From positions 9,963 through 73,962 of the IMG/VR virus record IMGVR_UViG_3300009788_001732: 64,000 nt of DNA; one strand, given 5' to 3'. Shown here piece by piece: positions 4,501 through 45,087 of the stretch; position 1 is the first letter of the stretch; each line of letters starts with the position of its first letter. Made by a program: the position numbers and the translations under genes. The notes under the pieces were generated by a model. The model did not search any database. It was not told where the DNA came from and saw nothing but the letters and a program-made list of their open reading frames with translations. Source of the DNA: a virus. Lineage: Duplodnaviria > Heunggongvirae > Uroviricota > Caudoviricetes.

Positions 4501-4971
4501 TTACGGGTCAGCCGGCGTAGGACTCCTGTCTTTCATATCAGGCTCAGGTACATTGATATTGTTGGCTTCCAGCACTTCAATCAACTGCACAAGGTATAAA
4601 CCCTGCCCTGTGATAATTATGTTTTGCATCTGAAGGTGTAAAGCCATGTCATTATAACCCTGACTTAACTGTGCATATCCCTTAATTAAACTTTCCATCT
4701 CCTCTTCAAGCTCATACACATGTTGCCGCTCCTCGTCAAGCCACTCTTCAAGCTCATGTACATATTGCTCAATGAAACTTTGCATTGTTTCTTCAAGCTC
4801 ATGCATATGTTGTGCTTCATGCTCTGTTAGCGCACCGATCCGCGCCGTACTGATTCGAGACTCATTTACCAGCCCCACAAAGGTACCTTCGGCCGACCAC
4901 ATGAGGAGAAGGCTCAAGCATGCTACTGTAAGACATACACTTATGCACAGTACAAAGATTTTCTTAGACAT
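4501..4971 (-). CDS. putative secreted/lipoprotein with HELEE repeats
   Basis: N-terminal signal-like hydrophobic segment ending in LTVAC (lipobox-like), followed by three ~12-aa repeats (HMHELEET / YVHELEEW / HVYELEEE). The repeats are visible as DNA repeats at 4680-4860. Confidence 0.4.
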   Translation of the reverse strand: MSKKIFVLCISVCLTVACLSLLLMWSAEGTFVGLVNESRISTARIGALTEHEAQHMHELEETMQSFIEQYVHELEEWLDEERQHVYELEEEMESLIKGYAQLSQGYNDMALHLQMQNIIITGQGLYLVQLIEVLEANNINVPEPDMKDRSPTPADP

Positions 4972-5584
4972 TCTGACACCTCCAAGCTAGTTCGTCAAAG
5001 CGATCACAGATTGCTATGTCCGTATCGTCGTTGTACAACGGGTTCCACGGGCGCGGTACAAGTAGAGATTCACCGCCTTCCGCGACAAAATTCTCACAGT
5101 TTTCTAGATGGTCGTCGACTAACATAACTCCCGGCTTCCCAAGAAGCCATTTACGAGGCGTGATGAAATATTGTCGGTGAATCCAATCAGGTAGGTTATC
5201 CCAAATCCAATGTAGTTTATCAGCATGAGACTGCGGGTCTTTTGTCGGTGTGGTCGCAAGGTACACCTCTTTAGGACCAACGAGTTCAGCCGCGCGTTCC
5301 AATAGCCAATTACATTGAGAGGTTTTAGGAGCTGTCCGCCATAGGTTTGCGTCTGTCACACCTTGCCAAAATGCAGGAATATTTGGGACATACCCACGCG
5401 TATTATCTTTGGTATACGGAACTTTGCCACCTAACATCTCGCACGCAGCTATAATGTTATAGCCTGCGTCTGTTGGAAACTTATCATAATCGAACGGCCC
5501 GACATCACATCCGTAGTGTTGTAAAACATGCAGTGTGAGACTGCTGAGCACATCATCGACATCTAGTATGATTCGTTTGATCAT
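4964..5584 (-). CDS. HAD-superfamily 5'(3')-deoxyribonucleotidase-like protein
   Basis: N-terminal ILDVDDVL (DxDxV/T HAD motif I) and a later VMLVDDH motif, as in phage and bacterial 5' nucleotidases. Confidence 0.65.
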   Translation of the reverse strand: MIKRIILDVDDVLSSLTLHVLQHYGCDVGPFDYDKFPTDAGYNIIAACEMLGGKVPYTKDNTRGYVPNIPAFWQGVTDANLWRTAPKTSQCNWLLERAAELVGPKEVYLATTPTKDPQSHADKLHWIWDNLPDWIHRQYFITPRKWLLGKPGVMLVDDHLENCENFVAEGGESLLVPRPWNPLYNDDTDIAICDRFDELAWRCQNV

Positions 5585-6677: not shown

Positions 6678-7232
6678 CTACATCACTCCCAGGTCAGTAA
6701 AGAAATTGCCAGACCCATCAGTGATAGGTGGGTTGGCAGGGTTCCAAAGTTCTCCGTTGACAAGTACATCAGGCGCACCTTCGACCACTCCTCCATGATA
6801 ACTCAATTGAACACCGGCTTCAACTAACATTTCCAAAGCTTCGTTTACTGAAGACTGCCAACGCTCTGGCGTCATTTGCATCCTCTCGCGGTGCATAACG
6901 ACAACCAAGACACCAGAGTTAATAATTGCTCTTGCACAATCACAGCAGGCTGCCCATGGTACATACATTGTAGATGCATAAACTTTACTGCCAGCCCGGG
7001 CCGCTTGATAAATAGCAGCACGTTCAGCATGTTCAAAGTAGCGATATTTATCAGGTCTAACTGTTGATCTTTCTTCAGTGAATTCCACGCCAGTCGGAAA
7101 GTTGTTGTTTCCCGTGGCGATAATTTCATTATTTGAAGACACCAAAACAGAGCCATTTTGGTTTGACTTATCTCTGCTCTGTGCCGCTATACAATACGCA
7201 TTCCGCAGGTATTCTTCTGTTTGTTCACTCAT
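6678..7232 (-). CDS. dCMP deaminase (cytidine/deoxycytidylate deaminase family)
   Basis: Zinc-binding HAERAAIY ... PCCDCARAI (H-x-E ... PCxxC). I placed the start at the internal Met (MSEQ...) to avoid overlap with the upstream gene; the track ORF runs to 7319. Confidence 0.85.
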   Translation of the reverse strand: MSEQTEEYLRNAYCIAAQSRDKSNQNGSVLVSSNNEIIATGNNNFPTGVEFTEERSTVRPDKYRYFEHAERAAIYQAARAGSKVYASTMYVPWAACCDCARAIINSGVLVVVMHRERMQMTPERWQSSVNEALEMLVEAGVQLSYHGGVVEGAPDVLVNGELWNPANPPITDGSGNFFTDLGVM

Positions 7233-7236
7233 TTGG

Positions 7237-7638
7237 TCAATACCTATCAATGGAGTCAAGTAATTCATCCAGGCTTGGTTGATTAAATGGGTCCCCATAC
7301 TTAGGCTTCCAATAATCAAACCAGTTTGGTTGTCGAAACAATCGTTTAACTTGCTCGTGTGTTCCCGCAGTCATAATCCAGATACCAATATTGTGTCGAT
7401 GCCACCTGGGCCACTTATCACGTTGTGCAGCCGTGTATTCATACTTGCCTTCGACTTTAACATCAACCCAACGTTGGCCATACTGTGAATGCCCCAAGTA
7501 CAAATCAGGGAACCCTTTCATGTACTTGTTGCCGTGCGTAACCTCAACTAACCAACCTAGGCCCTCAAGAAGAGGTCGAATCTCCCTGTCTCGAATTCTA
7601 GTTTCTTCTGAATTGCGGCTATATCTCTTGGCCATCAT
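7237..7638 (-). CDS. VRR-NUC domain nuclease
   Basis: GFPDLYL ... VDVK arrangement (PD-(D/E)xK, VRR-NUC-like). I set the start at MMAKRY, which gives an ATGA overlap with the polymerase stop; the track ORF start of 7719 lies inside the polymerase gene. Confidence 0.55.
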   Translation of the reverse strand: MMAKRYSRNSEETRIRDREIRPLLEGLGWLVEVTHGNKYMKGFPDLYLGHSQYGQRWVDVKVEGKYEYTAAQRDKWPRWHRHNIGIWIMTAGTHEQVKRLFRQPNWFDYWKPKYGDPFNQPSLDELLDSIDRY

Positions 7639-10388
7639 CCGGCCATCTCTGGCGGTTGAATCTTCAGAGTTCGGCTGCCACTCTTCTTCTCGGCCCAATT
7701 CTCTTGTTCGAGATTCCACGTCATACCGATGAGTGGTACTTGATCTCTGTAACTGACAACCTCGTTCTCAACAGCCTTACTAATACGCTCGGTCATCTCT
7801 GGTGTATTTACTACCATGATTTCATCATGGATATTAAATGGGGCCACCAATAATTTGTTGACGCCCGAGGGCTGCAAGTCCCAAATTTTACGCTGAACTG
7901 CCTTTGTAATTTGGCCGCCGGGTGATTGAATTTCGTGGTTTGCTGCTGCGCGAACATTGGCGCCCTGTAATCCAAATGCTGCTCCAAACAAAGCGGATGA
8001 GACAGCACCGCCCGCTGTCTGCACACCCTTGTGCATCGACCGCATGACTTTGACTTTCAGATTATTTCCTTGCCAGGCTTTAGGTACGTTGTGTGCCAAG
8101 TCATACAAAGCCTTACACACCATGTTTTCAAGTGCAAAGGATCGTTTAAACCCTAAAAAAGATGTCACTTCGTCTTCTGGATCATTCCAGATGATTTGTT
8201 TTCCATTGATTTGCCGCATGGATTGAAACATGTCAATGATTCTTTTGCGCGCCTTGGGTATGCCGGGAAACATATCGAAGAAGTTTTGCTCGGCAGCCTT
8301 AGCTGTTTCTTCATCGAGACCTTGTTTTCGTCTCAGAGTGGTCCAGTCGCCACCGTATATCAGTGCAAATACACCAGTCTTACCGGAGGTGTACATGTCG
8401 TGGCTTGTACCGTCTGACTCAATCACTTGATCGTAAGTGGCTGGCGGAAACATAGCCATGCCAAACAGCGCGTGAATCTTCTTTCTAAACCAGCCTTTGC
8501 CACCGCAGAGGCGACATTCTCGGAGGCCGTTTGGATTGCCATCCGCGCTAGTCTGACAATACATGCAGTTGAATTTGCCGACCCCACCAGTGCCGCCGCA
8601 TTTTTCGCATTCTTTACCGTGTAAACAATCCTTGCAATCTACTTTGTTGGTGAGCGCATTAAATAGGTCTTTGTCTTTGTATACAGCAGCAGCTAGCACA
8701 ACCTCGAATGAGTCAAAGTCGCCCCCGCTCAAGACCATTCCGTCCCATTTCAAAGGGAACATCGCTCGGACAGATTTATCGTGCTTAATCCCCTGTGCAT
8801 TAAGTCCCGATCCGCCAGACATTCGTGTCGAGAGTGTTCCTATAACATTGAAATCAGGATGAAACTTCTTGGCATAGAGAAGTTTTTGGTAGAGTTCGAC
8901 CTCTTTGGCGGCTGTTTTGATATCTAAGATTTGTCGTGCTCGTTGAGCGGCGGGGTGATTTCCGACTTTGATACCACCAGACTCATCGAATTCAGTCTTT
9001 CCAGAAGCGTCAATGCGGCCTTTTCCGTCACAGCGGAGGCACTTTGTATCGTGCGCATTGCCTGTTCCACTGCACCGAGTACATTCCGTATTGTGTTCTT
9101 CTTCCGTAAAACAATCTTTTGAGATATCCTGCAATACAGCCTTCTTGGTGGATTGTTCCAATACCAATGCTTCCATTTCGTCCATGCACTCAGTTATATA
9201 CGCACGAACTTCAGAAGGTCTGTTGATGTTGATTGGAGACGCCTGTAATTTGTGCCATGCATCAGCATACAATTTTTGTATACCAGTTTCATTGATCTCA
9301 AAACCATGCCAGCGCACTGCACCAACCATGCAAGCTAGTTCGCTGTCATCATCGCCGGGTTCCGGATTGTCAAAGTAACGACACAGCGCACGAGTGTACA
9401 CAATATCATCGTAAGCGTACTCTTGCGCATTTTCATTTGTATACCAATGGTCGATGTGATGTTCCAACCAATATGGCCACGCATTGCCGCGGGCCTTTTT
9501 CTTCTTATCGTAGATTGTCCAAGAATCATCAGCTCCGCTAGGTGCCATACCAAGGGCCGTAGGAATAAAACCTAGCCGCTTGTCGGGTGGGGATTTTCTC
9601 CGATCTACTTCAACATCTTTAAAATGATACTTTGGCTGCCAACCCAATGCATATTCGGCTAAGTATTTCAAACCGCCGGCTGGATTGAATCGCAAACAAA
9701 CATCCTTGAAATAAGCGTCCATATTGCCATCGTTATCTATTCGATCAAATACTTTCCACCGTGGACCATACGGGTCTTTCGACTTCGCAAAACAAATGCC
9801 GGGGAATTCAATACGCTGCTCCAATTCACGGGCTAGCGCATATGCCAAAACAGTGGGCACACGACGAATACGGATGTCACTTCGGGACATGGCGGTCTGA
9901 AATTTGCCCTTGCGCGACCACAGCATGAGATCACACGCCCGCTTCGGTTTAATGCATGGTCCATCTTGGCCAGCGTATTCATATTTAACTGCAATCTCTT
10001 CGATATGCTCCTCGGGAATCCAATCCGATGGAAGCAACTTCCAGATTGTGTAAATCTTCGCCACATGAAAATGATCAAAGGAAAGATTGAACCCGATGTA
10101 ATCGAGTTCCATCAACATTTCAAAGAGTTCGAGCGTCTTCCAGACAGGCTCTTTCCAGATGTGGTACAAGTAAATTGGGCCATCATCAATAGCAAATTGC
10201 CATAGCACCATGATGCTGTGTAAACCACAGGTCTCAGAGTCGATGAAAACTGCTTTACCAGCATCCACTTGTCGACGAATCTCATACAGATTCAAACCGA
10301 CCTTAATCTGGTCGATCACTTTCGCGCGATTGAAGGACTCGCGCGTAAAGACGGGAGCCTCTGATTGTATTTGATCAGTATCAAACAT
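7635..10388 (-). CDS. family A DNA polymerase with 3'-5' exonuclease domain and Cys-rich insertions
   Basis: Exo I FIDSETCGL; motif A GGDFDSFEVV (D.S..E); O-helix/motif B KTGVFALIYGG; motif C NIHDEIMVV. Two insertions carry CxxCxGxG repeats (see findings). Confidence 0.9.
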   Translation of the reverse strand: MFDTDQIQSEAPVFTRESFNRAKVIDQIKVGLNLYEIRRQVDAGKAVFIDSETCGLHSIMVLWQFAIDDGPIYLYHIWKEPVWKTLELFEMLMELDYIGFNLSFDHFHVAKIYTIWKLLPSDWIPEEHIEEIAVKYEYAGQDGPCIKPKRACDLMLWSRKGKFQTAMSRSDIRIRRVPTVLAYALARELEQRIEFPGICFAKSKDPYGPRWKVFDRIDNDGNMDAYFKDVCLRFNPAGGLKYLAEYALGWQPKYHFKDVEVDRRKSPPDKRLGFIPTALGMAPSGADDSWTIYDKKKKARGNAWPYWLEHHIDHWYTNENAQEYAYDDIVYTRALCRYFDNPEPGDDDSELACMVGAVRWHGFEINETGIQKLYADAWHKLQASPININRPSEVRAYITECMDEMEALVLEQSTKKAVLQDISKDCFTEEEHNTECTRCSGTGNAHDTKCLRCDGKGRIDASGKTEFDESGGIKVGNHPAAQRARQILDIKTAAKEVELYQKLLYAKKFHPDFNVIGTLSTRMSGGSGLNAQGIKHDKSVRAMFPLKWDGMVLSGGDFDSFEVVLAAAVYKDKDLFNALTNKVDCKDCLHGKECEKCGGTGGVGKFNCMYCQTSADGNPNGLRECRLCGGKGWFRKKIHALFGMAMFPPATYDQVIESDGTSHDMYTSGKTGVFALIYGGDWTTLRRKQGLDEETAKAAEQNFFDMFPGIPKARKRIIDMFQSMRQINGKQIIWNDPEDEVTSFLGFKRSFALENMVCKALYDLAHNVPKAWQGNNLKVKVMRSMHKGVQTAGGAVSSALFGAAFGLQGANVRAAANHEIQSPGGQITKAVQRKIWDLQPSGVNKLLVAPFNIHDEIMVVNTPEMTERISKAVENEVVSYRDQVPLIGMTWNLEQENWAEKKSGSRTLKIQPPEMAG

Positions 10389-10426
10389 TCTTTTATTTTA
10401 GCAGAATCAGACTTTCTTGTCAAGCA

Positions 10427-10451
10427 TAAAAAACTCCGCACAAAGGCGGAG
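10427..10451 (-). terminator. rho-independent terminator
   Basis: On the minus strand, the stem cuccgc/gcggag with a 6-nt loop is followed by a U-run (plus-strand aaaaaactccgcacaaaggcggag). It sits between the ParB-like gene end and the polymerase gene start. Confidence 0.6.
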
Positions 10452-10478
10452 TATTCAATAAAACTACAGTATGGCGGA

Positions 10479-11456
10479 TCAGAATTTTATCTCGCTTCCG
10501 TCGCTGTCTTTGAAGCCGATGATTTTGTCCAATTTATCAACTAAGACACACCTGCTCGGATAGCCTAGTCTATTTTCCAAGAATTCAGGAGATTCGATTT
10601 CTTTCATGACCCAGGCAAGTGTGGAAGTGATAATTTTCCTATCTTCAACACTTAAACACGCCCATTCATATGACTTGTAGATGATTCCGATCGTCTTCTT
10701 GATCTCATCTTTACCACGAGGTCTATTACCCCAACGGTACCCGCGAACGCCGCAGGGCTTTTGACTGGTTCCCTTGGTGGCAATAATCACCTGGAAAACA
10801 GATTCAATCTGATTTGGAGGAAGCCCTGCCAATCTCTCTACATCATACTGGCTCAAGCCACCTTTATTCTGTGCTACAGATTTCTGGATGTACCCGGGAA
10901 GAGCAAGTAAATCGAAGCGGGATTTCACCCATCGCTTAGGCTTACCAATCATCCGTGCGATGTCTTTAATATCCTCTACTGGCCACGTGCGCTCAAGAGC
11001 TAGCGCTTCTTCAACCATATTTAAGTCTTTGCGTTGTAGATTCTCCGTGAAGTTTAACGCGCGAGATTGTTGCGGCGACAGTCCTTTCTCAACAATACAC
11101 TTGGCACGGTCCTCTGCTGTCCAATTATCAATTGCTGTGTACCGACGATTGCCAGCAATCAAACGGAAGGACCAAGCACATGGGTCAGGACGCTCATCAT
11201 TCGGCACATCTTCGATAGGCTGAATGAGGAGCGGCATTCTCTGCCCTTCGGCCGTTATACTCTGCCCAAGTTCATATACCTCCTGAGGTGCAAACTGACC
11301 CCGACAATTGAATTCAGGATCAACATAAATGTCTAATAACGGCACCCAAATGATTTCACCAGCAACTTCATACATAGCGTTATCCTTGGTGGCATCATAT
11401 ATTAGCGGGCCTGTCAGTAGGTCAGTATAGGGAGGATGCCGCAACTTCCCCAACAA
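10479..11456 (-). CDS. ParB-like nuclease-domain protein
   Basis: FRLIAGNRRYTAI matches the ParB/Srx GxRR box. Confidence 0.55.
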   Translation of the reverse strand: MLGKLRHPPYTDLLTGPLIYDATKDNAMYEVAGEIIWVPLLDIYVDPEFNCRGQFAPQEVYELGQSITAEGQRMPLLIQPIEDVPNDERPDPCAWSFRLIAGNRRYTAIDNWTAEDRAKCIVEKGLSPQQSRALNFTENLQRKDLNMVEEALALERTWPVEDIKDIARMIGKPKRWVKSRFDLLALPGYIQKSVAQNKGGLSQYDVERLAGLPPNQIESVFQVIIATKGTSQKPCGVRGYRWGNRPRGKDEIKKTIGIIYKSYEWACLSVEDRKIITSTLAWVMKEIESPEFLENRLGYPSRCVLVDKLDKIIGFKDSDGSEIKF

Positions 11457-11496: not shown

Positions 11497-12039
11497 TCAC
11501 GTGAAGATGCTGTATCCATATTTATGTATATCTGGATAAAGCACTTCAAGTTGTTTTGCTTGCGCTACTGTCAACAGCGTGCGCCAGTCTGGCTTATTCT
11601 CAGTAACACCCACCTTATCAAGTGCGACGAACGGTATGTTGTTTATCAAGAATCTATGATTCAAATTTTGTTCTAAGTTCTCGAATGCCAAGTTGAAATT
11701 GGTCCGTTCATGGTATCGCCAAAATAATGTTTCTCTTTTCTTGTGCTTCAAACCCTTATTGAAGACCCATGTTTTGAATGTTGTGTGCTTAGAATTTCGT
11801 AGCCAACAGGTTACAAGCCAATCATAAGGGTTGCGGACGACGCGGAATTTCCAATATGTATCGAACTGTTTGGCGGTGACACATCCGCCGTCGAGCATTT
11901 GGGTCACACTAATATGATGATCGCCATTAAAGTTTTGACTCCCTTCATGTTGACTCATGAGAGCCGCTTCAATTGCTCGACCGCCAGTGTGAGGCTCATG
12001 ACAAAATATATAATGATGTTTGTGATTAACTACACTCAT
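11497..12039 (-). CDS. sulfotransferase-fold protein, paralog 1
   Basis: HEPHTGGRAI (5'-PSB-like loop) and FRVVRNPYDWLVTCW (RNPxD..VS motif of sulfotransferases). Confidence 0.5.
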   Translation of the reverse strand: MSVVNHKHHYIFCHEPHTGGRAIEAALMSQHEGSQNFNGDHHISVTQMLDGGCVTAKQFDTYWKFRVVRNPYDWLVTCWLRNSKHTTFKTWVFNKGLKHKKRETLFWRYHERTNFNLAFENLEQNLNHRFLINNIPFVALDKVGVTENKPDWRTLLTVAQAKQLEVLYPDIHKYGYSIFT

Positions 12040-12575
12040 TAGAATTCGTACCCGTGTTTCACCAATTCATCGTTGAACTTTTCCTGAATCAATTGAATAA
12101 GCCCGGGCCTATAGTAAGTTTGGTATGGGCGGGGTTTCTTTGGTCCTACTTGCTCAAGTTGAGGTTTCGGAAATCCATTGTTCACCAGTGCGTCGGTGAA
12201 ATCTTGTTCGATGCGCTCGTACCGAAGGATAACGGTGGACAATGGGGCGTACTTCCAAAACAGTTCGTAACGAGTACGATCAGGGTTTCGGCGAATCCAT
12301 TCCGATTTACGACAGAGCTTCGGTACGTAGCGATCGAACGTTTCAGGACAGTGATTAAGATACCAGAAGGAAACAAACCAATCAAAGGGATTTCTCACCG
12401 ATGACATAATTAGGTCGCCCTCCTGGACTACTGTCCTGAAGGTTGAAATATCATGGTGGCTAACGTGAATTACTGCGCCAAGCCGCTGCATTGCATTCTG
12501 GCAAGCTTTGGATGCTGTCCGAGGCATCGCAAGAAAATGCGCGCGGCGTTCGCCGAAGTAAAGTGTGTACATCAC
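12039..12575 (-). CDS. sulfotransferase-fold protein, paralog 2
   Basis: AMPRTASKA and SSVRNPFDWFVSFW. It is co-linear with paralog 1 (HHISVT/HHDIST; LFWRYHE/LFWKYAP; C-terminal KYGY/KHGYEF), and the start/stop overlap at 12039. Confidence 0.5.
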   Translation of the reverse strand: MMYTLYFGERRAHFLAMPRTASKACQNAMQRLGAVIHVSHHDISTFRTVVQEGDLIMSSVRNPFDWFVSFWYLNHCPETFDRYVPKLCRKSEWIRRNPDRTRYELFWKYAPLSTVILRYERIEQDFTDALVNNGFPKPQLEQVGPKKPRPYQTYYRPGLIQLIQEKFNDELVKHGYEF

Positions 12576-12578
12576 TCA

Positions 12579-13862
12579 TCATAACTCCACGTGATATCGT
12601 TTTGGGCCGTTCCGCTCTTCCTCATGTTTCAAATCAATTGGCAATCGCCATGTGACGCCGTTTCGATCATGTACGCCATGTATCAGTTGACAGGGAGCAC
12701 GATAACCAGAGAATGAATTGTAACTGAATGGATCATTACCAAGCCAAGCACCGTTGAGCAGCAGCTCACCATCCAAGTCAGACATGCTTCCTTGCACATG
12801 ATGGTGCCCCATACAAAAGTAACGAATCCGTGTGCCGCCAGTAATGTTATTCAGCGCCATCAAGTTCTTTTGCTTACGAATCAGACCATAGAACGGGATA
12901 CCGAGGCTACCACGAACATCGTCGCCATGACACATATGAAAACCGTGCCCACGGATATTCACATTGATTGAAAATGCATTTGGGATTGTAAACTTAACAT
13001 TATCAACGTCGCGAAGCCACAGCTCTGTGGTTTTCGCAACCATGTAATCCCAATTCTCATGGGCACCATAATGATCTTTCTTAACCGTACGTCGTCCGTG
13101 ATTTCCAGGGACATACACACAATACACATTCTCAAAATACGGAGCCAAGTCTCGAATCATCAAAGCATGAAGTTGGCCGATAGCCAAAGTATTCTTCATC
13201 TGATTTCTAAAGTAACTCCGTTTCTCGTGGCCATGAATTTCGCCACTGGTGTGGTCACCGTTGGCAAGAATCCATAGATTCTCGAATTTATAGTTAGTCA
13301 GATGTTCCTGTGAATGTTCAATTACTGTGTCAATCAATTTCTCTGCACGAGCACAAGAGATGCGAAAGTCATATTGTTCAAGTTCGCCAGTCTCTTCTAA
13401 TGTGACAATCTGATCGTGATGGCCGTCACTCAGGTGCAATACGAGGTCTTCGTTGATCGTTTGTTTTTTGCCAGGTTTTCGTGCGGGGGGCAGTTTCTTG
13501 AATGGTTGTATTTTCTCATCAATGACTTCACATGCAGCTTTCCAAAGACCGCCTTTTTTAACGGCAGCTTTGGCCACTCGTTTATAGTGATTTTTTTCAT
13601 CAACAAGATGAGCGACCTCAGCTTCCAGCTCCAAGATGTGTTTGTTTGTTGCGTCATGCTTGACTCTCTTCCTCGTTCCGCCCTCCATATTTATCCGGTG
13701 GTAACCTTTAGGCCAGGGTACATCAGTTCTTGTTCTACCATTTGCAATATCAGAAACATATCCACGACTCACGCCAAATTCTATCGCGAGTTGAGAAAGT
13801 GATTTGTCACCTTTCACGATGCGTTTCTTAAGAGTCGCAACACGCTTGTCACTTAATATCAT
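12579..13862 (-). CDS. HTH domain fused to a calcineurin-like metallophosphoesterase
   Basis: N-terminal HTH LSQLAIEFGVSRGYVSDIANG. Phosphoesterase motifs LHLSDGHHD (DxH), ILANGDH (GDxxD/H), VPGNHG (GNH), GHHH. Confidence 0.75.
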   Translation of the reverse strand: MILSDKRVATLKKRIVKGDKSLSQLAIEFGVSRGYVSDIANGRTRTDVPWPKGYHRINMEGGTRKRVKHDATNKHILELEAEVAHLVDEKNHYKRVAKAAVKKGGLWKAACEVIDEKIQPFKKLPPARKPGKKQTINEDLVLHLSDGHHDQIVTLEETGELEQYDFRISCARAEKLIDTVIEHSQEHLTNYKFENLWILANGDHTSGEIHGHEKRSYFRNQMKNTLAIGQLHALMIRDLAPYFENVYCVYVPGNHGRRTVKKDHYGAHENWDYMVAKTTELWLRDVDNVKFTIPNAFSINVNIRGHGFHMCHGDDVRGSLGIPFYGLIRKQKNLMALNNITGGTRIRYFCMGHHHVQGSMSDLDGELLLNGAWLGNDPFSYNSFSGYRAPCQLIHGVHDRNGVTWRLPIDLKHEEERNGPKRYHVEL

Positions 13863-13871
13863 ATGCGCCCT

Positions 13872-16800
13872 TTAGTCATTTAGTCCGGATAACACGCCCA
13901 GCGTCAGTAGTTCAAGTTTCCGATTTTGTCGAAGCACTTTATGAACGTTCTCGTCGCTTGGGAGATGATAAATATCGACGATTTTACAACCTTTGTTCTC
14001 GTCCATTCCCTTACGATGAATTCTGTCTTCAGCCTGTGATCTCGACTCTGGATTGAAGTCATTACTCCAAAACACTGCCATGCGTGCTTCAGTCAGATTA
14101 AGACTCAATCCGCCTGATTGTGGATGAGCCACAAACGCCACCTGTTGATGATGCTCTAAATCTGCCCAATAGTGTAGAGGTTTGTCAGTCCTAATTGATT
14201 TTCCAGTATTATCAAATACTTGCCAACCACGGCCGTCGCACTGAACCACGGCCCAACCTTCCTTTTTACAGATTTGTCGAATACGATCATTGCTTCCTTG
14301 GAAGCCAGAGAAAATTACAATCCTGCCTGTTTCTTCACACTGTGCCAACCGTGCCTTTAGTTTGGCCTCCTTCGGGCACGGGGCTTCACGTGCGATCCGC
14401 TTGTACTTGGTGGTTTGACGAGTCCCTTTACATCTCGGACACGCTATGTATTTCTCTTCCAGAATATCAACGTACTCTTGGTCAAGCATGTCAATGGCTT
14501 GAATTGGGTCACTGGGCGCAGCAGGATCAAACCATGCTTTAACTTCTCCCGGCCGCTCTGAACCTGCGCAGGTTGGACAATTTCTAAGGCCATCATGTAT
14601 ATCTTTGTATATGAATCCGTCACTAAGCTCACGGAGCCATGTGATGCCTGTCATTACATTCGGAGCGCCCTTAGCAATTGTTTTTGCAACCCTAAGCATC
14701 GAAGGTGAGGGTTCACATATGTCAATCTCGTATACTTTGTCAGGCAAATCAAGAACATCCCGCTTGTGGATAACTGTAACTAAACCCGCGAGACGTTCGT
14801 ACATGTAGGACACTTCATCACTAGACCTTTCAAAGTCATGCACGGCTTTGTCAGGGTCGTCGATGTCCCACGCATGTGCGCCTTCATCTTTCAACTTAGC
14901 ACATTTCATGCACTTGTCCGGATTGTCTTTCCAGCCAATGCGTACATTGATAACGTTGTCGGGAAGTTCTTGCCGAACCATAAAACCTAAACGGGTTTCT
15001 AATTGATCCTTTGAACCCTCTTTCAGATAGCCCGGCCATGCAATTTCACACTGTTTCCACCAATCCAAGGGAGATTTTGGACTTGGGGTACCGGACATCA
15101 GAATCACGTAGCCATTATCAGTACCATACGTAATCCGAATCAAGTCTGCCAAATCTTGCGCGGCTTTGGATCGCTTTGCAGTCGGAGACTTCAGCTTTGA
15201 CGATTCATCAAAGATCACACCGGCTGGTACAGGATCAGAATCCAATCGCATCTCCATGAATTTGACCAGGCGTTCATACGTGGTTAAATAAATATTGTGT
15301 TCATTTGCATGGACAGTCTCGACGAGCGTATTCCCATCTTTGGGCTTGATCCATGAGAGCGGAAGTTTCCACTTTTCCCACTCTCGTTCAATATTTTCAA
15401 GCGATTTCAGCGGGCCAACCCAGAACCATTGGTCACAACCAGAACGTTCCATGACGGCTTGTGCTGCCATAGTATTATGCGTGACAATAAACTCATCTGT
15501 CACATAACAATGAGAATCAGAATTTACTCTTATACAAATACATTCCTCAAAGCCAATAGATTCAACTGATACAATGGCTCGGGTCGGTTGATACTTTGTT
15601 GGTGTCGTGTAAAGATTAGCTTTTCGAGACAAGAGGAAGGGTTTTGTACGGCTCCAAAATGATCCATTTATTCTATGGCTTGGTTGACCTATTCTTGACT
15701 CACCTTTATAAGTATAAATTGGTTTCTCTTTAAGACCCCGCGAACATGTACCACCAAATGATTGGATGAGAAACACCATTGCTGAGGCGAGTTTGTCTGA
15801 TGCTGAAGAAAATTCAATCCCACAAGTATTTAATGGCGTACCATCTGAATCTAATAACCCCTGCATCAAACATAAACGATTATCAACTGTATTGAAGAGA
15901 AATTCATTAGGGACAAATTTAGTAGCGGCTCTACATTCTTTTAGACCGTATGAATCAATAGCAGCACGAGTCCGAGGGCATCGAATTATATAAGCAATGT
16001 TTTCACCTTTCTTTGTTTGAGATGTAGGAACCAGGGGTGTGTCCATAAAGAAATTCAAACGGTCTATTGTCTCCTGATCAGGTACAGCCACACTATATGC
16101 GGGCAAATGCCCATTGCCCAGAATATACCCCATAACATATGGATGACATTCTAAGGCTTGCTTATCAAAATCAACCGGTTCCACCATTGGTATGAACCAT
16201 TTATTGTTGCCATTCCTATGCTGAAGACCCTTTGCTACAAGCTCTTGTAACTTGAAGACTTTATAACCTTGTCCCCGCCATTTACGCAGTGGTGTAATTA
16301 CTCGCCAAAGATGTTCTCCATCACATTCTGTAGATGACCTATCCGTAAAAGTAACTTTGAATATTTCTCTGCGCCCCTGTGGATGCAAACTCAAAACTTT
16401 GCACTCACCACCTTCTGGATCAACAAGACGTGATCCAACTTTCAAAGCACCCATAGTTGTCCAACCAGAGGGCGTAAGAACCGGCGTGGTTAATTGTGCG
16501 GCTTTCCCAACGCCCATTTCGGCACCCCAGATTTGATAATGATAAGTCAAACCTGTGTCAGCCATTAACTTTTGATGGTCCATCAGTGGCAAATGATCAG
16601 AATATTCACGTTGAATCAATTCCCGATCGAACCATTCGTAGGGGTCGGCGCCCATCAGATATTTCAACTGAAACCAGTTGCGCTGGCAGTTATCAACCGT
16701 CCAGACCTTTCGTGGCTGCTCACGATCGTAGCCATGCCACTTGGCGCCCGTCATCGCTTTGATTTCATTTTTGAGATGAAAGGGTGATTTCTTGAATTCA

Positions 16801-16913
16801 ATCTCTGTCGGGCTTACAACTAACGTGACCGGGTTTCTAATCCGCAGTCCGCCCTTTGTCTCTGTGTAGAGAACAGTTTCAAGAATCTTCTTTTGGGTCA
16901 TACCCATAATCAA
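13872..16913 (-). CDS. SNF2-family helicase (precursor containing an intein)
   Basis: Walker A GAEMGVGK|...|TMAAQA is split by a 343-aa insertion. Downstream are DESS (motif II), zinc-ribbon-like CxxC pairs and the helicase C-domain motifs QSGGLSLNLT and SQAEDRIHRKG. Confidence 0.85.
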   Translation of the reverse strand: MIMGMTQKKILETVLYTETKGGLRIRNPVTLVVSPTEIEFKKSPFHLKNEIKAMTGAKWHGYDREQPRKVWTVDNCQRNWFQLKYLMGADPYEWFDRELIQREYSDHLPLMDHQKLMADTGLTYHYQIWGAEMGVGKAAQLTTPVLTPSGWTTMGALKVGSRLVDPEGGECKVLSLHPQGRREIFKVTFTDRSSTECDGEHLWRVITPLRKWRGQGYKVFKLQELVAKGLQHRNGNNKWFIPMVEPVDFDKQALECHPYVMGYILGNGHLPAYSVAVPDQETIDRLNFFMDTPLVPTSQTKKGENIAYIIRCPRTRAAIDSYGLKECRAATKFVPNEFLFNTVDNRLCLMQGLLDSDGTPLNTCGIEFSSASDKLASAMVFLIQSFGGTCSRGLKEKPIYTYKGESRIGQPSHRINGSFWSRTKPFLLSRKANLYTTPTKYQPTRAIVSVESIGFEECICIRVNSDSHCYVTDEFIVTHNTMAAQAVMERSGCDQWFWVGPLKSLENIEREWEKWKLPLSWIKPKDGNTLVETVHANEHNIYLTTYERLVKFMEMRLDSDPVPAGVIFDESSKLKSPTAKRSKAAQDLADLIRITYGTDNGYVILMSGTPSPKSPLDWWKQCEIAWPGYLKEGSKDQLETRLGFMVRQELPDNVINVRIGWKDNPDKCMKCAKLKDEGAHAWDIDDPDKAVHDFERSSDEVSYMYERLAGLVTVIHKRDVLDLPDKVYEIDICEPSPSMLRVAKTIAKGAPNVMTGITWLRELSDGFIYKDIHDGLRNCPTCAGSERPGEVKAWFDPAAPSDPIQAIDMLDQEYVDILEEKYIACPRCKGTRQTTKYKRIAREAPCPKEAKLKARLAQCEETGRIVIFSGFQGSNDRIRQICKKEGWAVVQCDGRGWQVFDNTGKSIRTDKPLHYWADLEHHQQVAFVAHPQSGGLSLNLTEARMAVFWSNDFNPESRSQAEDRIHRKGMDENKGCKIVDIYHLPSDENVHKVLRQNRKLELLTLGVLSGLND
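15474..16502 (-). mobile_element. intein with LAGLIDADG homing endonuclease domain inserted in the helicase P-loop
   Basis: The intein begins AAQLTTPVLTPSG (block A-like, Ala1) right after GVGK. It carries the LAGLIDADG-like motifs VMGYILGNGH and LMQGLLDSDGT and ends IVTHN, followed by Thr+1; removing it restores GxGKT. I verified the nucleotide codons at both junctions. Confidence 0.8.
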
Positions 16914-17262
16914 TCGTTAATTCTCTATTCTTAGGAATGGAACGTAATGCAGTCACAATCAAAATTGAGTTGCCCTTGGCCTCTTCTGGTTCTACAACCT
17001 CACAATTCGGGTCGTTACTGTGATTCAAGTAACACCATGGGGCGAAAGGAACAAATCCGCTATCGTTGTCCCACTCGAATCCATATGTCCAGGCTTGCTC
17101 AAAGTCTTTCAGTGCCTGCGTAGCGCTTTCTTTGGCGCGTCCCCAGACAGGCTTGTATTTATAAATCCAGCCATAAATACACTGCCATTCATCTTTCTTG
17201 ATACATGAATATGCAAATACACCCTTACCATGTATCGGTGAATTATCGATGTAGATGTTCAA
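16879..17262 (-). CDS. minimal SET-domain protein (putative protein lysine methyltransferase)
   Basis: IHGKGVFA (GxG), YLNHSNDPNC (NHSxxPN), ELTIDYGYD (ELxxDY); only 127 aa. Confidence 0.8.
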   Translation of the reverse strand: MNIYIDNSPIHGKGVFAYSCIKKDEWQCIYGWIYKYKPVWGRAKESATQALKDFEQAWTYGFEWDNDSGFVPFAPWCYLNHSNDPNCEVVEPEEAKGNSILIVTALRSIPKNRELTIDYGYDPKEDS

Positions 17263-20373: not shown

Positions 20374-20392
20374 GTTGTTGCCCTATGCAAAG

Positions 20393-20464
20393 CTGTGCAG
20401 GAAGGATTTGAACCTTCATCGTAGCGGTTAACAGCCGCCCGTCTTACCATTAGACCGCCGCACA
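20393..20464 (-). tRNA. tRNA-Asn (anticodon GTT)
   Basis: Manual cloverleaf: acceptor tgtgcgg/ctgcaca (one G-U), D-arm gtct-aatggta-agac, anticodon arm ggcgg-ctGTTaa-ccgct, T-arm gaagg-ttcaaat-ccttc, 72 nt, no encoded CCA. Confidence 0.65.
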
Positions 20465-20948
20465 TCAAATAGGCTCTTGTTTTCTGTACTCATACCAATT
20501 ACTGCGTTTACGATTCAAGTTACATAATGCCTCGTCACGCTGTCTCTCAGTATTGTAGCGCCGATACACGCACCAATCAACGCAAACCCACGTTTGTCGA
20601 CCACAGTAACGGAACTCAATGGCAAATAGCTTTTTCTTAGATTTCTTCCTCCGCGGACGTTCTCGTTCCTCAATCTGAGGTCCTTTATCGCGGAGAGCTT
20701 CCCAATCATTCCGACTCATGTTTCTGGCACGCCCTTTCGGCTGGACCACGCTTACTATGCCGACTGATGATTGACTCGCCGCCAGCTATATTAACTGCAT
20801 AGTATCTAGTCCCCATCCCTGGGAGTTTTCCAACACTTTCGACTATCTTATAAAGACCACAGCGTGACCTCCAAGTGCGTCGTTTTGCACAAGGTGTTTC
20901 ATCTTTCTGTGCCCTCATCCAATCGAGCTTCTGCTTTGTCTTGGACAT
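20465..20948 (-). CDS. two overlapping small ORFs; possible degenerate homing-endonuclease-like gene
   Basis: ORFs 20706..20948 and 20465..20749 overlap in different frames. The first has CGLYKIVESVGKLPGMGTRYYAVNIAGGE, which is loosely GIY-YIG-like. The pair lies between tRNA genes. Confidence 0.25.
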
Positions 20949-21018
20949 CTTGAAGTACCCTACAGCAGTTTCGATCCGCTTTCTCCGGGATGAAAGCCCG
21001 ACGACATAGCCATTAGTC
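20947..21018 (-). tRNA. tRNA-Glu (anticodon TTC), candidate
   Basis: Manual fold: acceptor gccctac/gtagggt (G-U closing), anticodon arm tcggg-ctTTCat-cccgg, T-stem agcgg/ctgct (one G-U) with an atypical T-loop atcgaaa, D-stem only 3 bp. Confidence 0.45.
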
Positions 21019-21046
21019 CAGTAGGGCTGAAGCTAGCGGAGGGACT

Positions 21047-21119
21047 TGAACCCACAACCTGCTGATTACAAATCAGCCGCTCTGCCAATTGAGCTACGCT
21101 AGCTTATATGGCGATTGGT
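21047..21119 (-). tRNA. tRNA-Thr (anticodon TGT)
   Basis: Manual fold: acceptor gctagcg/cgctagc, D-arm gctc-aattggca-gagc, anticodon arm gctga-ttTGTaa-tcagc, T-arm with one T-T mismatch, 73 nt. Confidence 0.65.
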
Positions 21120-23632: not shown

Positions 23633-24550
23633 TCACGTCAATGATTCTTCTGATTTTCGCTTTTGGTCACGATCACGCTGACGCCGCTCAGCATCGTTAA
23701 TACGCTGGCGTTCATAGTTTAACATCTTTTTCTTACGCTCAGCAATACTTATATCATCAACGCGAAAGGCCCACCTAAGTGCAAAGTTTGCTGCTTCAAT
23801 TGGATTCTCTATTTCAGCCGCTGCAATTATTACAGGTAAATTTGTTGGTGTGTCCAATTCAGCCTCTATAACACGCAAGTCCCGCATCATTGGCCGAAAA
23901 TCATCAATACCAAGCCGATCTAATTTACCCTGTTTCACGGCTTCACGATAGTCATTAACCGCGCGTTTCATATGTCTCACAAACTGAGACACTGGCATAA
24001 CCATAGCATCAGCAATATACTTTCCTTGCTCATTCCGAGGTAAGCGCGCCAGCCAATGTGCGCTGCCGATTGGCAATTCATTACGCTGGACGGCCGTTCT
24101 GACTTGCTCGGAAAGGTGGTTCAAACTGAGGACTTTCCTAATCCATGAAGTTGCTTTATTACAGAGGGTAGCCATCTCGGCAAGTGTCATTTCCTCATTA
24201 TGCAATGTACGCAACCGCTCAAGGTGTTGAGCAAAATCGATCCAATTGGTTTCTTTATGCTGCGAGTTGCACGCAATTTGGGCGGCCAGATATTCTGAGT
24301 CATTCAGTTCCACGATTCGCAGCGGCATCTTGTCAAGCCCTGCCTTGAGCGTAGCCTTATACCTCCTGTAGCCGTCATTCAATTGGAATCGTCCGCCTGG
24401 GCGAGGGCGCGCTGGTGGTGCTTGTAGACACCCATTATGCTGCTTGATCTGGTCTACAAGCTCAAGGAACGAAACGTCGGATTCGCTGAACTGCCGCAGA
24501 ATCGGATCAGGTGGGTCAATTTGTAAAACAGGTACAAATGTCACTGTCAT
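23633..24550 (-). CDS. ParB N-terminal domain protein
   Basis: QLNDGYRRYKATLKAG matches the ParB GxRR box. The track start at 24619 is a TTG with no SD; the first ATG is at 24550 (MTVTF...). Confidence 0.5.
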   Translation of the reverse strand: MTVTFVPVLQIDPPDPILRQFSESDVSFLELVDQIKQHNGCLQAPPARPRPGGRFQLNDGYRRYKATLKAGLDKMPLRIVELNDSEYLAAQIACNSQHKETNWIDFAQHLERLRTLHNEEMTLAEMATLCNKATSWIRKVLSLNHLSEQVRTAVQRNELPIGSAHWLARLPRNEQGKYIADAMVMPVSQFVRHMKRAVNDYREAVKQGKLDRLGIDDFRPMMRDLRVIEAELDTPTNLPVIIAAAEIENPIEAANFALRWAFRVDDISIAERKKKMLNYERQRINDAERRQRDRDQKRKSEESLT

Positions 24551-24894
24551 AATATAGTATAACCAGAATAACCCGCTTTTGGCGAAAATTTGCGCGGGGA
24601 AGGAGGGTTGGAGGGTCAATTAAGGACAGAAGGAGCGCGCCCTAAAGAAAATGTGTACCTAGGTTTATGAATAAAAGGGTCGATCAATGGTCTGTTAGTA
24701 TATAATGATTGATCCTAAAGAAAAGTCGTATTCAAATTTAAGTAGTACAGTAAAGTAAGCTTGTCGGATTTTGGAAAGATTTGACATAACTTTTACCGCA
24801 TGCAGAACTTAAGGGAGGGTCGATACAAAATATCCGACCCTTGTTTGACCCTTGGCTTGCCAACCATGGTAAGTTATACTATGATCAGGAGCCG

Positions 24895-27717: not shown

Positions 27718-27741
27718 TGAATGTTGAGAGGAGCGACCTTA

Positions 27742-28266
27742 ATGAAAAAGAGCGACCACACTATGCACGACGATCCGAGGACGGCCGAGCGTATACTCTG
27801 TAATGTCACTAGCACAAAGAACGCTAATACTGACCGCGATGATGTTATGCACGGCGATTTAGCTAGCACAGCGAAGGGGAGTGGCGCCCGCCGAAGTATT
27901 GGCAAGCTTTCTTTATCACTTGTACCTTTTCATCTCTTGGCTGGATGTTGCCGAGTTTTCATGGGCGGTAAGATTAAATATGCCGAGTGGAACTGGGCTA
28001 AAGGGATGAAATGGTCATATTGTTTCGACTGTACGCTGCGCCACCTATTTAAATGGTGGTTCTGTGGCGAAGATATTGATCCAGAGTCTGGCGAGCATCA
28101 CCTGGATCATGTACTTTGCAATCTGTTTATGCTTCGCCACTATGTGACCAATTACAAGGAGGGAGATGACCGTCCGCCAACCTACGCCGGGTTTTCAAAC
28201 TCTATGGATGATTTCTCGAAGTTATTTGACGAAGAAGATTACAAACGACGCAATGGTTACACATAA
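27742..28266 (+). CDS. hypothetical protein
   Basis: GAGGAG SD 7 nt upstream of ATG 27742; the Cys/His/Trp-rich core has no motif I can name confidently. Confidence 0.4.
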   Translation: MKKSDHTMHDDPRTAERILCNVTSTKNANTDRDDVMHGDLASTAKGSGARRSIGKLSLSLVPFHLLAGCCRVFMGGKIKYAEWNWAKGMKWSYCFDCTLRHLFKWWFCGEDIDPESGEHHLDHVLCNLFMLRHYVTNYKEGDDRPPTYAGFSNSMDDFSKLFDEEDYKRRNGYT

Positions 28267-45084: not shown

Positions 45085-45087
45085 TGT

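Follow-up and report, generated by a model that had tools for sequence, protein, structure and literature searches.

Two compact predicted sulfotransferases encoded side by side in the replication gene string of a Caudoviricetes virus

Genes resembling sulfotransferases are already annotated in other marine phages (cyanophages, roseophages and OM43 phages among them) and in giant viruses. What they do in phages is described as unclear (PMC10580990), and a literature search returned no characterised phage sulfotransferase, in agreement with the preliminary description of the locus studied here, which had called these enzymes essentially uncharacterised. Gp5.1 of Roseobacter phage SIO1 (188 aa), E3SP23 of Prochlorococcus phage P-SSM7 (196 aa) and a protein of Synechococcus phage ACG-2014f (207 aa) share the mini-fold and length class of the two proteins analysed in this article, named A and B (Foldseek against BFVD, E 1.6e-5, 6.7e-4 and 1.3e-3, respectively). 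SIO1 gp5.1 also matches a combined A+B profile (hhalign 92.9%, E 3.7e-7), contains the motifs VPKTAT and IRNPHDW, and is counted in the family. Identity to A or B is only 12–22% among these phage and giant-virus “sulfotransferase family proteins” (SIO1, P-SSM7, ACG-2014f, PHROG 3347). SIO1 and loci L006–L009, L047 and L048 hold a single copy in the stretch examined, whereas here an R-type protein (B) and an H-type protein (A) form a conserved pair; and unlike A and B, the other phage homologues inspected are not set between an exonuclease gene and a ParB gene.

In Pfam family PF03567, the members that have been characterised sulfate carbohydrates; heparan sulfate 2-O-sulfotransferase and the CHST8-14/HNK-1 enzymes are examples. 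Compared with the 252 positions of that profile, A and B have only ~180 residues, and those that are missing fall in loops between core elements (hhalign). Both proteins are soluble, phage-encoded and devoid of a membrane anchor, and the lysine of the 5′-phosphosulfate-binding (PSB) loop is replaced by arginine in B and by histidine in A. The cytosolic sulfotransferases (PF00685; SULT1B1, SULT4A1, SULT7A1, SULT2A8), which are ~290 aa in length, carry a PKSGTTW loop and have extended substrate-gating loops, are 10–16% identical to A and B. Sequence matches to Schistosoma SmSULT-OR (PDB 4mua; Sulfotransfer_4) and to tyrosylprotein sulfotransferases (TPSTs) are not significant (E 0.7–0.9); these enzymes are larger (250–370 aa) and have dedicated substrate-binding elements.

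The pair lies on the minus strand, a point not stated before, of a 64,000-nucleotide stretch (hereafter the window) of the IMG/VR Caudoviricetes record IMGVR_UViG_3300009788_001732 (Table 1). Neither protein carries a name in public collections. The preliminary description had reported two adjacent, translationally coupled paralogs of ~180 aa, each with a PSB-like loop and an RNPxDW...(S/C)xW motif, in an operon with an HTH-metallophosphoesterase and an SNF2 helicase. This layout was recovered: the two ORFs are present, the motifs were located in both B and A, and the two neighbours are tightly packed on the pair's strand. For B, the ORF has 178 aa when read from a GTG at 12575 (12039..12575) and 177 aa from the ATG at 12572; the ATG is more likely to be the start, because homologues begin with MYTL and the public gene call is 177 aa long. 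This ATG stands 6 nt past the stop codon of the upstream 427-aa gene. The junction between B and A reads ...GAATTCTAATGAGT... on the minus strand, and the gene calls of loci L004, L011, L050 and L052 show an identical 1-nt overlap. Such a stop/start overlap fits translational coupling, and B and A are probably coupled.

Table 1. Features of the gene pair and its surroundings (window coordinates).
Feature	Position	Strand	Basis and remarks
SET-domain protein, 127 aa, head of conserved gene string	16879..17262	minus	Pfam PF00856, E 3.2e-13
SNF2-type helicase, 1013 aa, with intein-like insert of ~344 aa	13872..16913	minus	PHROG 62, E 1.7e-45
“Exonuclease”, 427 aa, N-terminal HTH and calcineurin-type metallophosphoesterase; upstream neighbour	12579..13862	minus	PHROG 284, E 2.5e-35
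Gene B, predicted R-type mini-sulfotransferase, 177 aa	12039..12572	minus	core member of the pair
B PSB loop, P18-R-T-A-S-K-A24	12504..12524	minus	alignment; Arg in place of canonical Lys
B H40-H41, candidate catalytic base	12453..12458	minus	invariant in 29/29 B-family sequences
B 3′PB (3′-phosphate-binding) motif, R61-N-P-F-D-W-F-V-S69-F-W71	12363..12395	minus	alignment
TAATG overlap, B stop TAA and A start ATG, one base in common	12037..12041	minus	read from sequence
Gene A, predicted H-type mini-sulfotransferase, 180 aa	11497..12039	minus	ORF; accessory member of the pair
A PSB loop, P16-H-T-G-G-R-A22	11974..11994	minus	alignment; His (Tyr in one homologue) for canonical Lys
A H41-H42, candidate catalytic base	11914..11919	minus	H42 invariant in 17/17, H41 in 14/17
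A 3′PB motif, R69-N-P-Y-D-W-L-V-T77-C-W79	11803..11835	minus	alignment
ParB-like protein, downstream neighbour, start uncertain	10479..11456	minus	HTH_ParB E 2e-5, ParB_N E 0.003, PHROG 3264 E 1e-15
Terminator-like hairpin just past ParB, possible end of B/A transcription unit	10433..10452	minus	consensus scan only
Promoter-like site upstream of DNA polymerase gene, 11/12 consensus matches, TG extension	10395..10423	minus	consensus scan only

AlphaFold (AF2) models of the two proteins are confident (pLDDT 93 for B and 86.1 for A). They consist of a single α/β domain with a central parallel sheet, nearer to solved sulfotransferases than to P-loop kinases, and Foldseek with the A model returns SULT2A1, SULT4A1 and HS 6-OST at probability 0.94–0.99. 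In profile comparison, hhalign of A+B against 11 PF03567-carrying proteins gives 99.75% and E 3.4e-27 over 169 columns, from the PSB loop to a C-terminal GY.F. Against PF03567 itself, A scores 18.6 bits (E 0.0022; residues 3–110 on profile positions 4–130) and B 13.2 bits (E 0.1), both under the gathering threshold of 22 bits. There are 18 homologous clusters for A; its homologue P0045 and distant matches bear precomputed PF03567 annotation. Within the wider family, 48 of 149 members match PF03567 at E 0.01 or better (best 3.3e-21) and 33 of 149 match PF00685. PDB sequence searches with the narrow profiles (A, B, A+B) gave no significant match, and only the 149-sequence profile reached solved sulfotransferases (SULT4A1, SULT7A1 and SULT2A8, E 2e-7 to 9e-7). 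PHROG 3347, “galactose-3-O-sulfotransferase,” is matched by B at E 2.6e-6 and by A at E 1.3e-3. A and B are almost certainly homologues within the sulfotransferase superfamily, and the fold proposed from the first reading is supported by both structure comparison and profile alignment.

It had also been remarked that the proteins are short for the family. This is accurate with respect to the PF03567 profile, of which they fall ~70 residues below, yet their size is not unusual: the A+B profile matches ~14,000 cluster representatives (50% identity), and the best 150 of these are mostly 165–210 aa. Shortness is a trait of their large subfamily. The possibility of truncated or degenerate genes was considered and rejected, given a length typical of the family and a dN/dS below 0.35.

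PAPS-binding geometry was assessed by motif conservation. In the B loop, P18, R19, T20 and S22 are invariant across 29 sequences, and position 23 is K or R. The loop is paired by hhalign with hIPKTGGTS of the PF03567 carriers, and by HMMER, in a match that is not significant, with PRTGTKS of the solved PAP-binding Schistosoma sulfotransferase (4mua), in which Arg likewise takes the place of Lys. The A loop was compared in 14 full-length sequences: P16, G20 and R21 are found in all of them and H17 in 13, with a tyrosine once; we know of no precedent for histidine in a PSB loop. The 3′PB motif is equally constrained, with R61, N62, W66, S69 and W71 invariant in the 29 B-family sequences and R69, P71, Y72, W74, L75, V76, T77 and W79 in 17 A-family sequences. 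The Arg/Ser(Thr) spacing of the superfamily is thereby kept in both (R61...S69 in B, R69...T77 in A; invariant in 29 and 17 sequences). In the 149-sequence alignment R61 is the sole fully invariant column, P18, H41, N62, D65 and E120 are at least 90% conserved, and the wider-family profile aligns the B motif (VRNPwDwlvSw) to SULT4A1 ARNPKDLVVSYY (3′PB: ARNPKDLVVS). The conserved HH of B is a candidate catalytic base, a role suggested by its position between the PSB and 3′PB motifs. In the A family K149, W152 and T157 are also invariant (17/17). A conserved C-terminal basic/aromatic patch (KKPRPYQTYY in B, NKPDWxxLLT in A) was tentatively assigned from the cytosolic sulfotransferase consensus, and in our own mapping the SULT motif RKGxxGDWK may correspond to KKPRPYQ in B and NKPDW in A. 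B is probably catalytically active with PAPS, and for A the chances seem about even.

How are the two genes related to each other? BLASTP aligns A and B at 27% identity over 149 residues (E 1e-13, 52 bits), and each family's HMM finds the other gene (E 1.3e-13 and 8e-10), which indicates homology well beyond chance. The preliminary description had called them tandem duplicates, a claim that does not hold. With phmmer, A recovers 24 other cluster representatives at 42–189 bits before the first B-family member (39 bits), and B recovers 25 other proteins at 63–125 bits, A-family members being absent among those 25. Each gene is nearer to dozens of other proteins than to its neighbour, and a recent tandem duplication is rejected. 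Furthermore, B is found in all seven distinct related phage loci and A is missing from two of them (L010, L012). Sequence comparison points to distant paralogs from two old, separate subfamilies, not fresh duplicates, with B as the apparent core enzyme of the lineage and A as an optional second activity. Purifying selection acts on both genes, with a dN/dS of 0.17 in B and 0.33 in A; identity to the nearest relative is 89% and 73%, respectively.

Each related phage was viewed over ~20 kb. The seven distinct loci share the order exonuclease, B, (A), ParB, and in every related locus the ParB-like gene comes after B or A; one or two additional genes lie between A and ParB in L003, L011 and L053. 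At the head of the string, the position of the SET gene is kept in L001, L010, L011, L050 and L053. The 427-aa exonuclease has weak Pfam matches to HTH_3 and Metallophos_2 and is 71–81% identical within the lineage. In the SNF2 helicase, residues ~137–480 are unmatched in the 679-aa L001 homologue, an insert placed past GVGK and before T-MAAQ. The ParB-like protein has 325 aa from a TTG here and 298 aa in the public call for the same phage (L004); the L050 homologue has 252 aa. Relatives differ in the accessory genes that fill the exonuclease-ParB gap, a hot spot that holds a Dam-type methylase, HNH endonucleases, a T7 gp5.9-like ORF and ORFs starting with twin-arginine signal-like sequences. 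B, A, ParB and SET evolve about twice as fast as the replication enzymes. In a search for cultured relatives, 50,697 phage records gave no match to the region in megablast, nor to A, B or the 917-aa DNA polymerase in tblastn; the wider-family consensus gave only one partial match, in an unannotated uncultured phage, and IMG/VR yielded only one true family member. Neither the pair nor the exonuclease and ParB proteins matched a PADLOC-DB model (E cut-off 0.01), leaving a link to defence unsupported.

The best explanation of these data, with a probability of roughly 0.4, is a compact sulfotransferase pair of the PF03567 branch that carries out PAPS-dependent O-sulfation of a glycan. B and A would be transcribed with the early/replication genes, in the order SET, SNF2, exonuclease, B, A, ParB. 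Each protein would bind host-made PAPS through its PSB loop (PRTASK in B, PHTGGR in A), the RNPxDWxV(S/T) motif and the C-terminal basic/aromatic patch; the conserved histidine would deprotonate an acceptor hydroxyl, to which the sulfuryl group would then move. The ~70 residues missing relative to the PF03567 profile, with the cofactor core kept, would correspond to acceptor-binding loops, and their loss suggests an exposed, probably polymeric acceptor. This could be a sugar hydroxyl on a cell-envelope glycan or on a cytoplasmic precursor, and the two enzymes may add sulfate at two positions or onto two acceptors.

A carbohydrate acceptor is put forward tentatively, because PF03567 is the closest family and because family members stand amid sugar-metabolism genes in three other viral contigs. 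In L048 these are CTP_transf_like/MannoseP_isomer, with a faint PS_pyruv_trans match; L006 and L009 have an NTP-transferase-HAD fusion near the family member, and L009 also has Polysacc_synt_2, DegT and a 2OG oxygenase. Among bacteria, the homologues mostly occur as single genes with differing surroundings, and the wider family therefore points to no one acceptor; no conserved bacterial partner gene was found, the neighbours in L014, L039 and L045 being mutually unrelated.

Several observations are counted against the best explanation. The PSB lysine, a catalytic aid in classical enzymes, has given way to Arg in B and to His or Tyr in A, and both proteins score under the PF03567 gathering threshold. 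The pair is embedded among replication genes and not in a glycan module, and Pfam and PHROG scans of ~30 window ORFs found no glycosyltransferase, sugar-nucleotide, base-modifying or PAPS-synthesis gene near it. The varied contexts of the bacterial homologues also weigh against it.

An unlikely alternative, with some points in its favour, is that B and/or A act on a host or phage protein during host takeover, sulfating a tyrosine or hydroxylated residue alongside modification by the SET methyltransferase and a GNAT acetyltransferase; candidate targets include a nucleoid or DNA-binding protein and the ParB-like protein that the phage encodes. The arginine in the PSB loop of B resembles that of the TPSTs, whose loop is PRSGTT. 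The SET domain lies in the same operon and the GNAT gene in the window, and the faster evolution of B, A, ParB and SET would agree with such a role. Moreover, one of the three closest bacterial homologues (L014) is two genes away from a 1014-aa fusion of Asp/Asn beta-hydroxylase, Sulfotransfer_3 and DUF4915, of the kind discussed as predicted hydroxylate-then-sulfate protein-modification systems (PMC2938197). However, the closest profile family is PF03567, with its carbohydrate-acting known members, and not the TPST family, and no candidate substrate gene is consistently adjacent, given the one or two genes between A and ParB in three relatives.

Is A an enzyme at all? With a similarly low probability, at least A could be a pseudo-enzyme or a PAP(S)-binding subunit, acting as partner or regulator of B in a heterodimer or as a nucleotide binder. 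The His/Tyr at the place of the catalytic lysine, the loss of A from two related loci, a dN/dS twice that of B and the lower identity to its nearest relative would all suit this role, and the 1-nt overlap suggests the stoichiometric co-production of a partner. Yet H42, R69, T77, K149, W152 and T157 are invariant in 17/17 sequences, which is unexpected for a dead site. In addition, ~12 of 145 wider-family representatives have “PH(T)” at this place, and with bacterial homologues mostly solitary, H-type proteins presumably act alone.

The preliminary description had listed nucleic acid modification among the possible substrates, a link that rests on the position of the pair in the replication operon, between the exonuclease and ParB/PolA. 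It is improbable that this R-type and H-type pair sulfates a target in DNA metabolism, whether a nucleotide, a modified DNA base or a DNA-linked sugar (the pair then being part of a phage DNA-modification pathway), or a DNA-binding protein such as the ParB-like one. The window does encode a dCMP deaminase, an NT5C-type nucleotidase and a dATP/dGTP-diphosphohydrolase-type domain, and such nucleotide-metabolism genes often accompany non-canonical nucleotides. But no hydroxymethylase, thymidylate-synthase homologue or other base-modifying enzyme, nor any glycosyltransferase, was found among the ORFs scanned around the pair; the exonuclease-ParB gap is variable in relatives, so position alone tells little; and the three other viral contigs place family members beside sugar-metabolism genes. 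The literature search found no sulfated DNA, and we know of none. Were the target nevertheless in DNA metabolism, phage DNA biology would gain its first sulfate modification.

Finally, a P-loop kinase or other nucleotide-binding fold, named beforehand as the outcome that would overturn the assignment, can be set aside, since Walker A GxxxxGK[ST] is absent from both proteins (with PRTASK in B and PHTGGR in A at the equivalent place), kinases align over ~105 residues versus ~150 for sulfotransferases and all rank beneath 17 of the latter, and profile homology to the PF03567 carriers reaches E 3e-27.

What emerges is above all a solid annotation, together with a correction to the duplication claim, and not a new type of system. 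Phage sulfotransferases are annotated, and none has a known substrate. The present lineage is well suited to a clean test, since its two small, soluble proteins are confidently modelled and should express easily, one is encoded by a core gene and the other by an optional one, and natural variants lack A. Identification of the acceptor would assign a function to a family of ~14,000 representatives at 50% identity, and would also tell whether an enzyme with a histidine in its PSB loop can use PAPS.

Two overlapping minus-strand genes make up the pair, an upstream gene B with the motifs PRTASK and RNPFDWFVSFW and a downstream gene A with PHTGGR and RNPYDWLVTCW, as the preliminary description had noted. 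An alternative ATG start for B lies one codon past the GTG, at 12572, giving 177 aa; since all B homologues start MYTL and the public gene call for a sequence identical to B is 177 aa, this ATG is likely the true start. It lies six bases past the stop codon of the preceding 427-aa gene; the B/A junction (GAA TTC TAA TG on the minus strand) has one base common to the B stop and the A start. A and B are 27% identical over 149 residues (BLASTP, E 1e-13), the HMM of each family retrieves the other gene (1.3e-13 and 8e-10), and the two are homologous.

Coordinates of the genes and other features discussed (window positions, unless a related phage or bacterial locus, L, is named)
Feature	Position	Strand	Remarks
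Interval with the gene pair	11497-12575	-	two ORFs, B and A
B, upstream gene	12039..12575	-	178 aa counted from GTG
A, downstream gene	11497..12039	-	180 aa
Family-A DNA polymerase (PolA)	7635-10388	-	917 aa; several CxxC clusters (zinc-ribbon-like inserts)
dCMP deaminase	6678-7319	-	
NT5C-type 5'-nucleotidase, weak	4964-5584	-	E 3e-4, below threshold
dATP/dGTP diphosphohydrolase N-terminal domain	27721-28266	+	PF18909, E 1e-26
ParB-like genes	10479-11456; 23633-24619	-	ParB_N + HTH_ParB
SNF2 gene	13872-16913		
Insert in SNF2 gene	15474-16505	-	~344 aa
tRNA cluster	20392-21104	-	Asn-GTT, Glu-TTC, Thr-TGT; ARAGORN, Rfam-confirmed
Successive structural-region ORFs	43250-46901	-	304, 306, 297, 306 aa
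T7 Gp5.9-like ORF	L010 7534-7704		56 aa
ORFs with twin-arginine signal-like N termini	L001 9447-10001; L003 7914-8705, 9234-10001		
NUMOD4/HNH genes	L001 10515-11027; L002 6047-6601; L011 5418-5975; L012 5819-6472, 9141-9497; L053 1645-2166		
Ro60/TROVE + vWA protein	L003 16181-17755; L012 4038-5654; L053 12203-end		
Hydroxylase-sulfotransferase fusion	L014 10040-13084	-	1014 aa
Bacterial gene cluster	L043 1-8834		five family members in 9 kb

All Pfam matches fall under the cut-off of 22 bits: A scores 18.6 bits against PF03567, and B 14.8 bits against PF00685 and 13.2 bits against PF03567. PHROG 3347 ("galactose-3-O-sulfotransferase") is matched at 2.6e-6 by B and 1.3e-3 by A. Beyond these sub-threshold scores, the sulfotransferase fold proposed in the preliminary description is confirmed for both genes, because structure, a large family, solved-structure matches and profile-profile alignment all agree. 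AlphaFold2 models built on alignments of 29 (B) and 17 (A) homologues reach pLDDT values of 92.8 and 86.1, and Foldseek pairs the A model with SULT2A1, SULT4A1 and HS 6-OST (probability 0.94-0.99). A profile of the wider family (149 mini-sulfotransferases) matches solved cytosolic sulfotransferases at E 2e-7, its VRNPwDwlvSw being paired with ARNPKDLVVSYY and its lRYEnLqeDl with LKYEDMHRDL. Against 11 PF03567 carriers, hhalign aligns the joint A+B profile over 169 columns (99.75%, E 3.4e-27), from the 5'-phosphosulfate-binding (PSB) loop (LAMPRTASKA with hIPKTGGTS) to the C-terminal GY.F. Another P-loop fold such as a kinase, raised earlier as the alternative, was not found by structure and profile comparison: sulfotransferases were matched instead, and the Walker A motif is absent from both A and B.

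Among 1.8 billion cluster representatives, the A+B profile retrieves 13,935 proteins at E <=1e-3 and 2,632 at the stricter E of 1e-10. The best 150 of the 13,935 are mostly 165-210 aa long; the shortness of A and B, noted at the outset, is thus a family trait. Of the wider family's 149 members, 48 have a PF03567 match, with 3.3e-21 as the best E, and 33 a PF00685 match.

Motif residues are constant within each family: P18, R19, T20, S22, K/R23, H40, H41, R61, N62, W66, S69, W71, R118, E120, K147 and Y155 in B, and P16, H17 (Tyr in 1/14), G20, R21, H42, R69, P71, Y72, W74-T77, W79, E120, K149, W152 and T157 in A. Across the 149 sequences the sole fully invariant column is R61, with P18, H41, N62, D65, E120 and Y176 at least 90% conserved. 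Unlike the textbook enzyme, in which the PSB loop carries Lys, B has Arg and A has His; a motif scan of 145 wider-family representatives gives R in ~72, K in ~32 and H in ~16. Tyrosylprotein sulfotransferases likewise carry Arg at this position; His is not known to us from any active enzyme. HMMER pairs the B loop with PRTGTKS of a solved PAP-binding Schistosoma sulfotransferase, at a score that is not significant. The C-terminal KKPRPYQTYY of B and NKPDWRTLLTVAQ of A presumably resemble the RKGxxGDWKxxFTVAQ region of cytosolic enzymes.

The idea of a recent tandem duplication has to be abandoned, since each gene scores higher with many other relatives than with its partner's family. In phmmer, A retrieves 24 other cluster representatives at 42-189 bits (loop mostly hEPHTGGR/PHTASR-type) before the first B-family member at 39 bits; B retrieves 25 others at 63-125 bits (mostly PRTAS-type), with no A-family member listed among them. 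By this ranking, A and B belong to two old subfamilies, here named H-type (A) and R-type (B). Homologous clusters number 32 for B and 18 for A. Seven distinct related phage loci were compared: B is followed by A in L001/L002, L003/L005, L011, L050-L052 and L053, and stands without A in L010 and L012. The window (public copy L004) likewise has B and then A. B is core in the lineage and A optional. NUMOD4/HNH homing endonucleases are dispersed across the relatives' replication modules, and one lies exactly between B and A in L001 and L002. Bacterial homologues are almost always single genes; the Latescibacterota MAG contig L043 holds five, the other bacterial loci one.

The conserved coding-strand order is SET, SNF2 helicase, HTH-metallophosphoesterase "exonuclease" (PHROG 284), B, (A), ParB-like, DNA polymerase A and dCMP deaminase, in agreement with the metallophosphoesterase and helicase neighbours first reported. 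A consensus scan, by pattern match only, places a terminator-like hairpin immediately downstream of ParB and, ahead of PolA, a strong promoter-like site, so the transcription unit with B and A may end with ParB. The exonuclease-ParB interval is variable in relatives, with a Dam-type methylase, HNH endonucleases, a T7 gp5.9-like ORF and twin-arginine signal-like ORFs. Lying between exonuclease and B in L010 and matching Pfam T7 Gp5.9 (RecBCD inhibitor), the gp5.9-like ORF suggests an accessory or anti-defence hot spot. The twin-arginine signal-like starts (for example MHTRRDALKLMTVGLGAFALP and MTISRRGMLRALGLGGAGLALGA) belong to ORFs just upstream of B and are unusual for a replication module.

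Measured against L050, the nearest relative, dN/dS comes to 0.17 for B, 0.33 for A, 0.09 for the exonuclease, 0.07 for PolA, 0.12 for ParB and 0.18 for SET. Lineage-wide identity is 67-81% for SNF2, exonuclease and PolA, and 37-55% for B, A, SET and the fast-evolving ParB-like gene adjoining the sulfotransferases. To judge from these sequence comparisons, A and B are both functional and evolve like accessory, host-facing genes.

The window encodes portal, major head and scaffold proteins, and its source is evidently a tailed phage. Since PolA has no tblastn match at 1e-10 in 50,697 phage records, the lineage is very distant from cultured phages. The SNF2 insert directly follows the Walker A GVGK, ends in THN with Thr as next residue, and has no counterpart in the homologues of 668-679 aa that L001, L050 and further relatives encode. 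The insert resembles an intein, possibly with Ala at position 1, and we attribute its further matches to terminase, primase and helicase-loader PHROGs to inteins carried by proteins of these groups. Two separate ParB-like genes occur in this one lytic-looking genome, and the four ~300-aa structural-region ORFs may be tandem paralogs. Besides the three nucleotide-pool genes tabulated (diphosphohydrolase domain, dCMP deaminase and the weak nucleotidase match), no PurZ-like or hydroxymethylase gene was found among the window ORFs scanned. The Ro60/TROVE protein is encoded near the polymerase in relatives; neither its gene nor a Y-RNA-like Rfam match was seen in the window, where Rfam gave three tRNAs only.

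As for the acceptor, a sugar hydroxyl is the most likely class, because PF03567, whose characterised members use carbohydrate acceptors, is the closest family to A and B, and because family members in three other viral contigs lie amid sugar-metabolism genes. In L048 the neighbours include one CTP_transf_like/MannoseP_isomer gene as well as a pyruvyl-transferase match that is faint; there is an NTP-transferase-HAD fusion in L006 and L009, and additionally Polysacc_synt_2, DegT aminotransferase and 2OG oxygenase in L009. Sugar, base-modification and PAPS-synthesis genes were sought in the ~30 window ORFs scanned, and none was found. A protein acceptor stays a real rival: two genes from the bacterial homologue in L014 lies a fusion of Asp/Asn beta-hydroxylase, Sulfotransfer_3 and DUF4915, a candidate hydroxylate-then-sulfate protein-modification enzyme reminiscent of systems already predicted (PMC2938197); the remaining bacterial contexts are uninformative on the acceptor. 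A DNA-linked acceptor is unlikely; the pair's place in the "replication operon" is weak evidence for a DNA-related role, given an interval so variable in relatives.

Similar mini-sulfotransferases are found by Foldseek against BFVD in Roseobacter phage SIO1 (gp5.1, E 1.6e-5, with confirmation from hhalign, 92.9%), among the "sulfotransferase family proteins" of Prochlorococcus phage P-SSM7 and Synechococcus phage ACG-2014f, and in several giant-virus proteins. Searches of full-text literature yielded no characterised phage sulfotransferase, and their function in phage genomes is considered unclear (PMC10580990), much as the preliminary description had supposed. The pair is new and lineage-specific, of a kind of phage gene already known but uncharacterised; to judge from homology and the contexts of relatives, A and B would use PAPS for O-sulfation, with a glycan as the most likely target.
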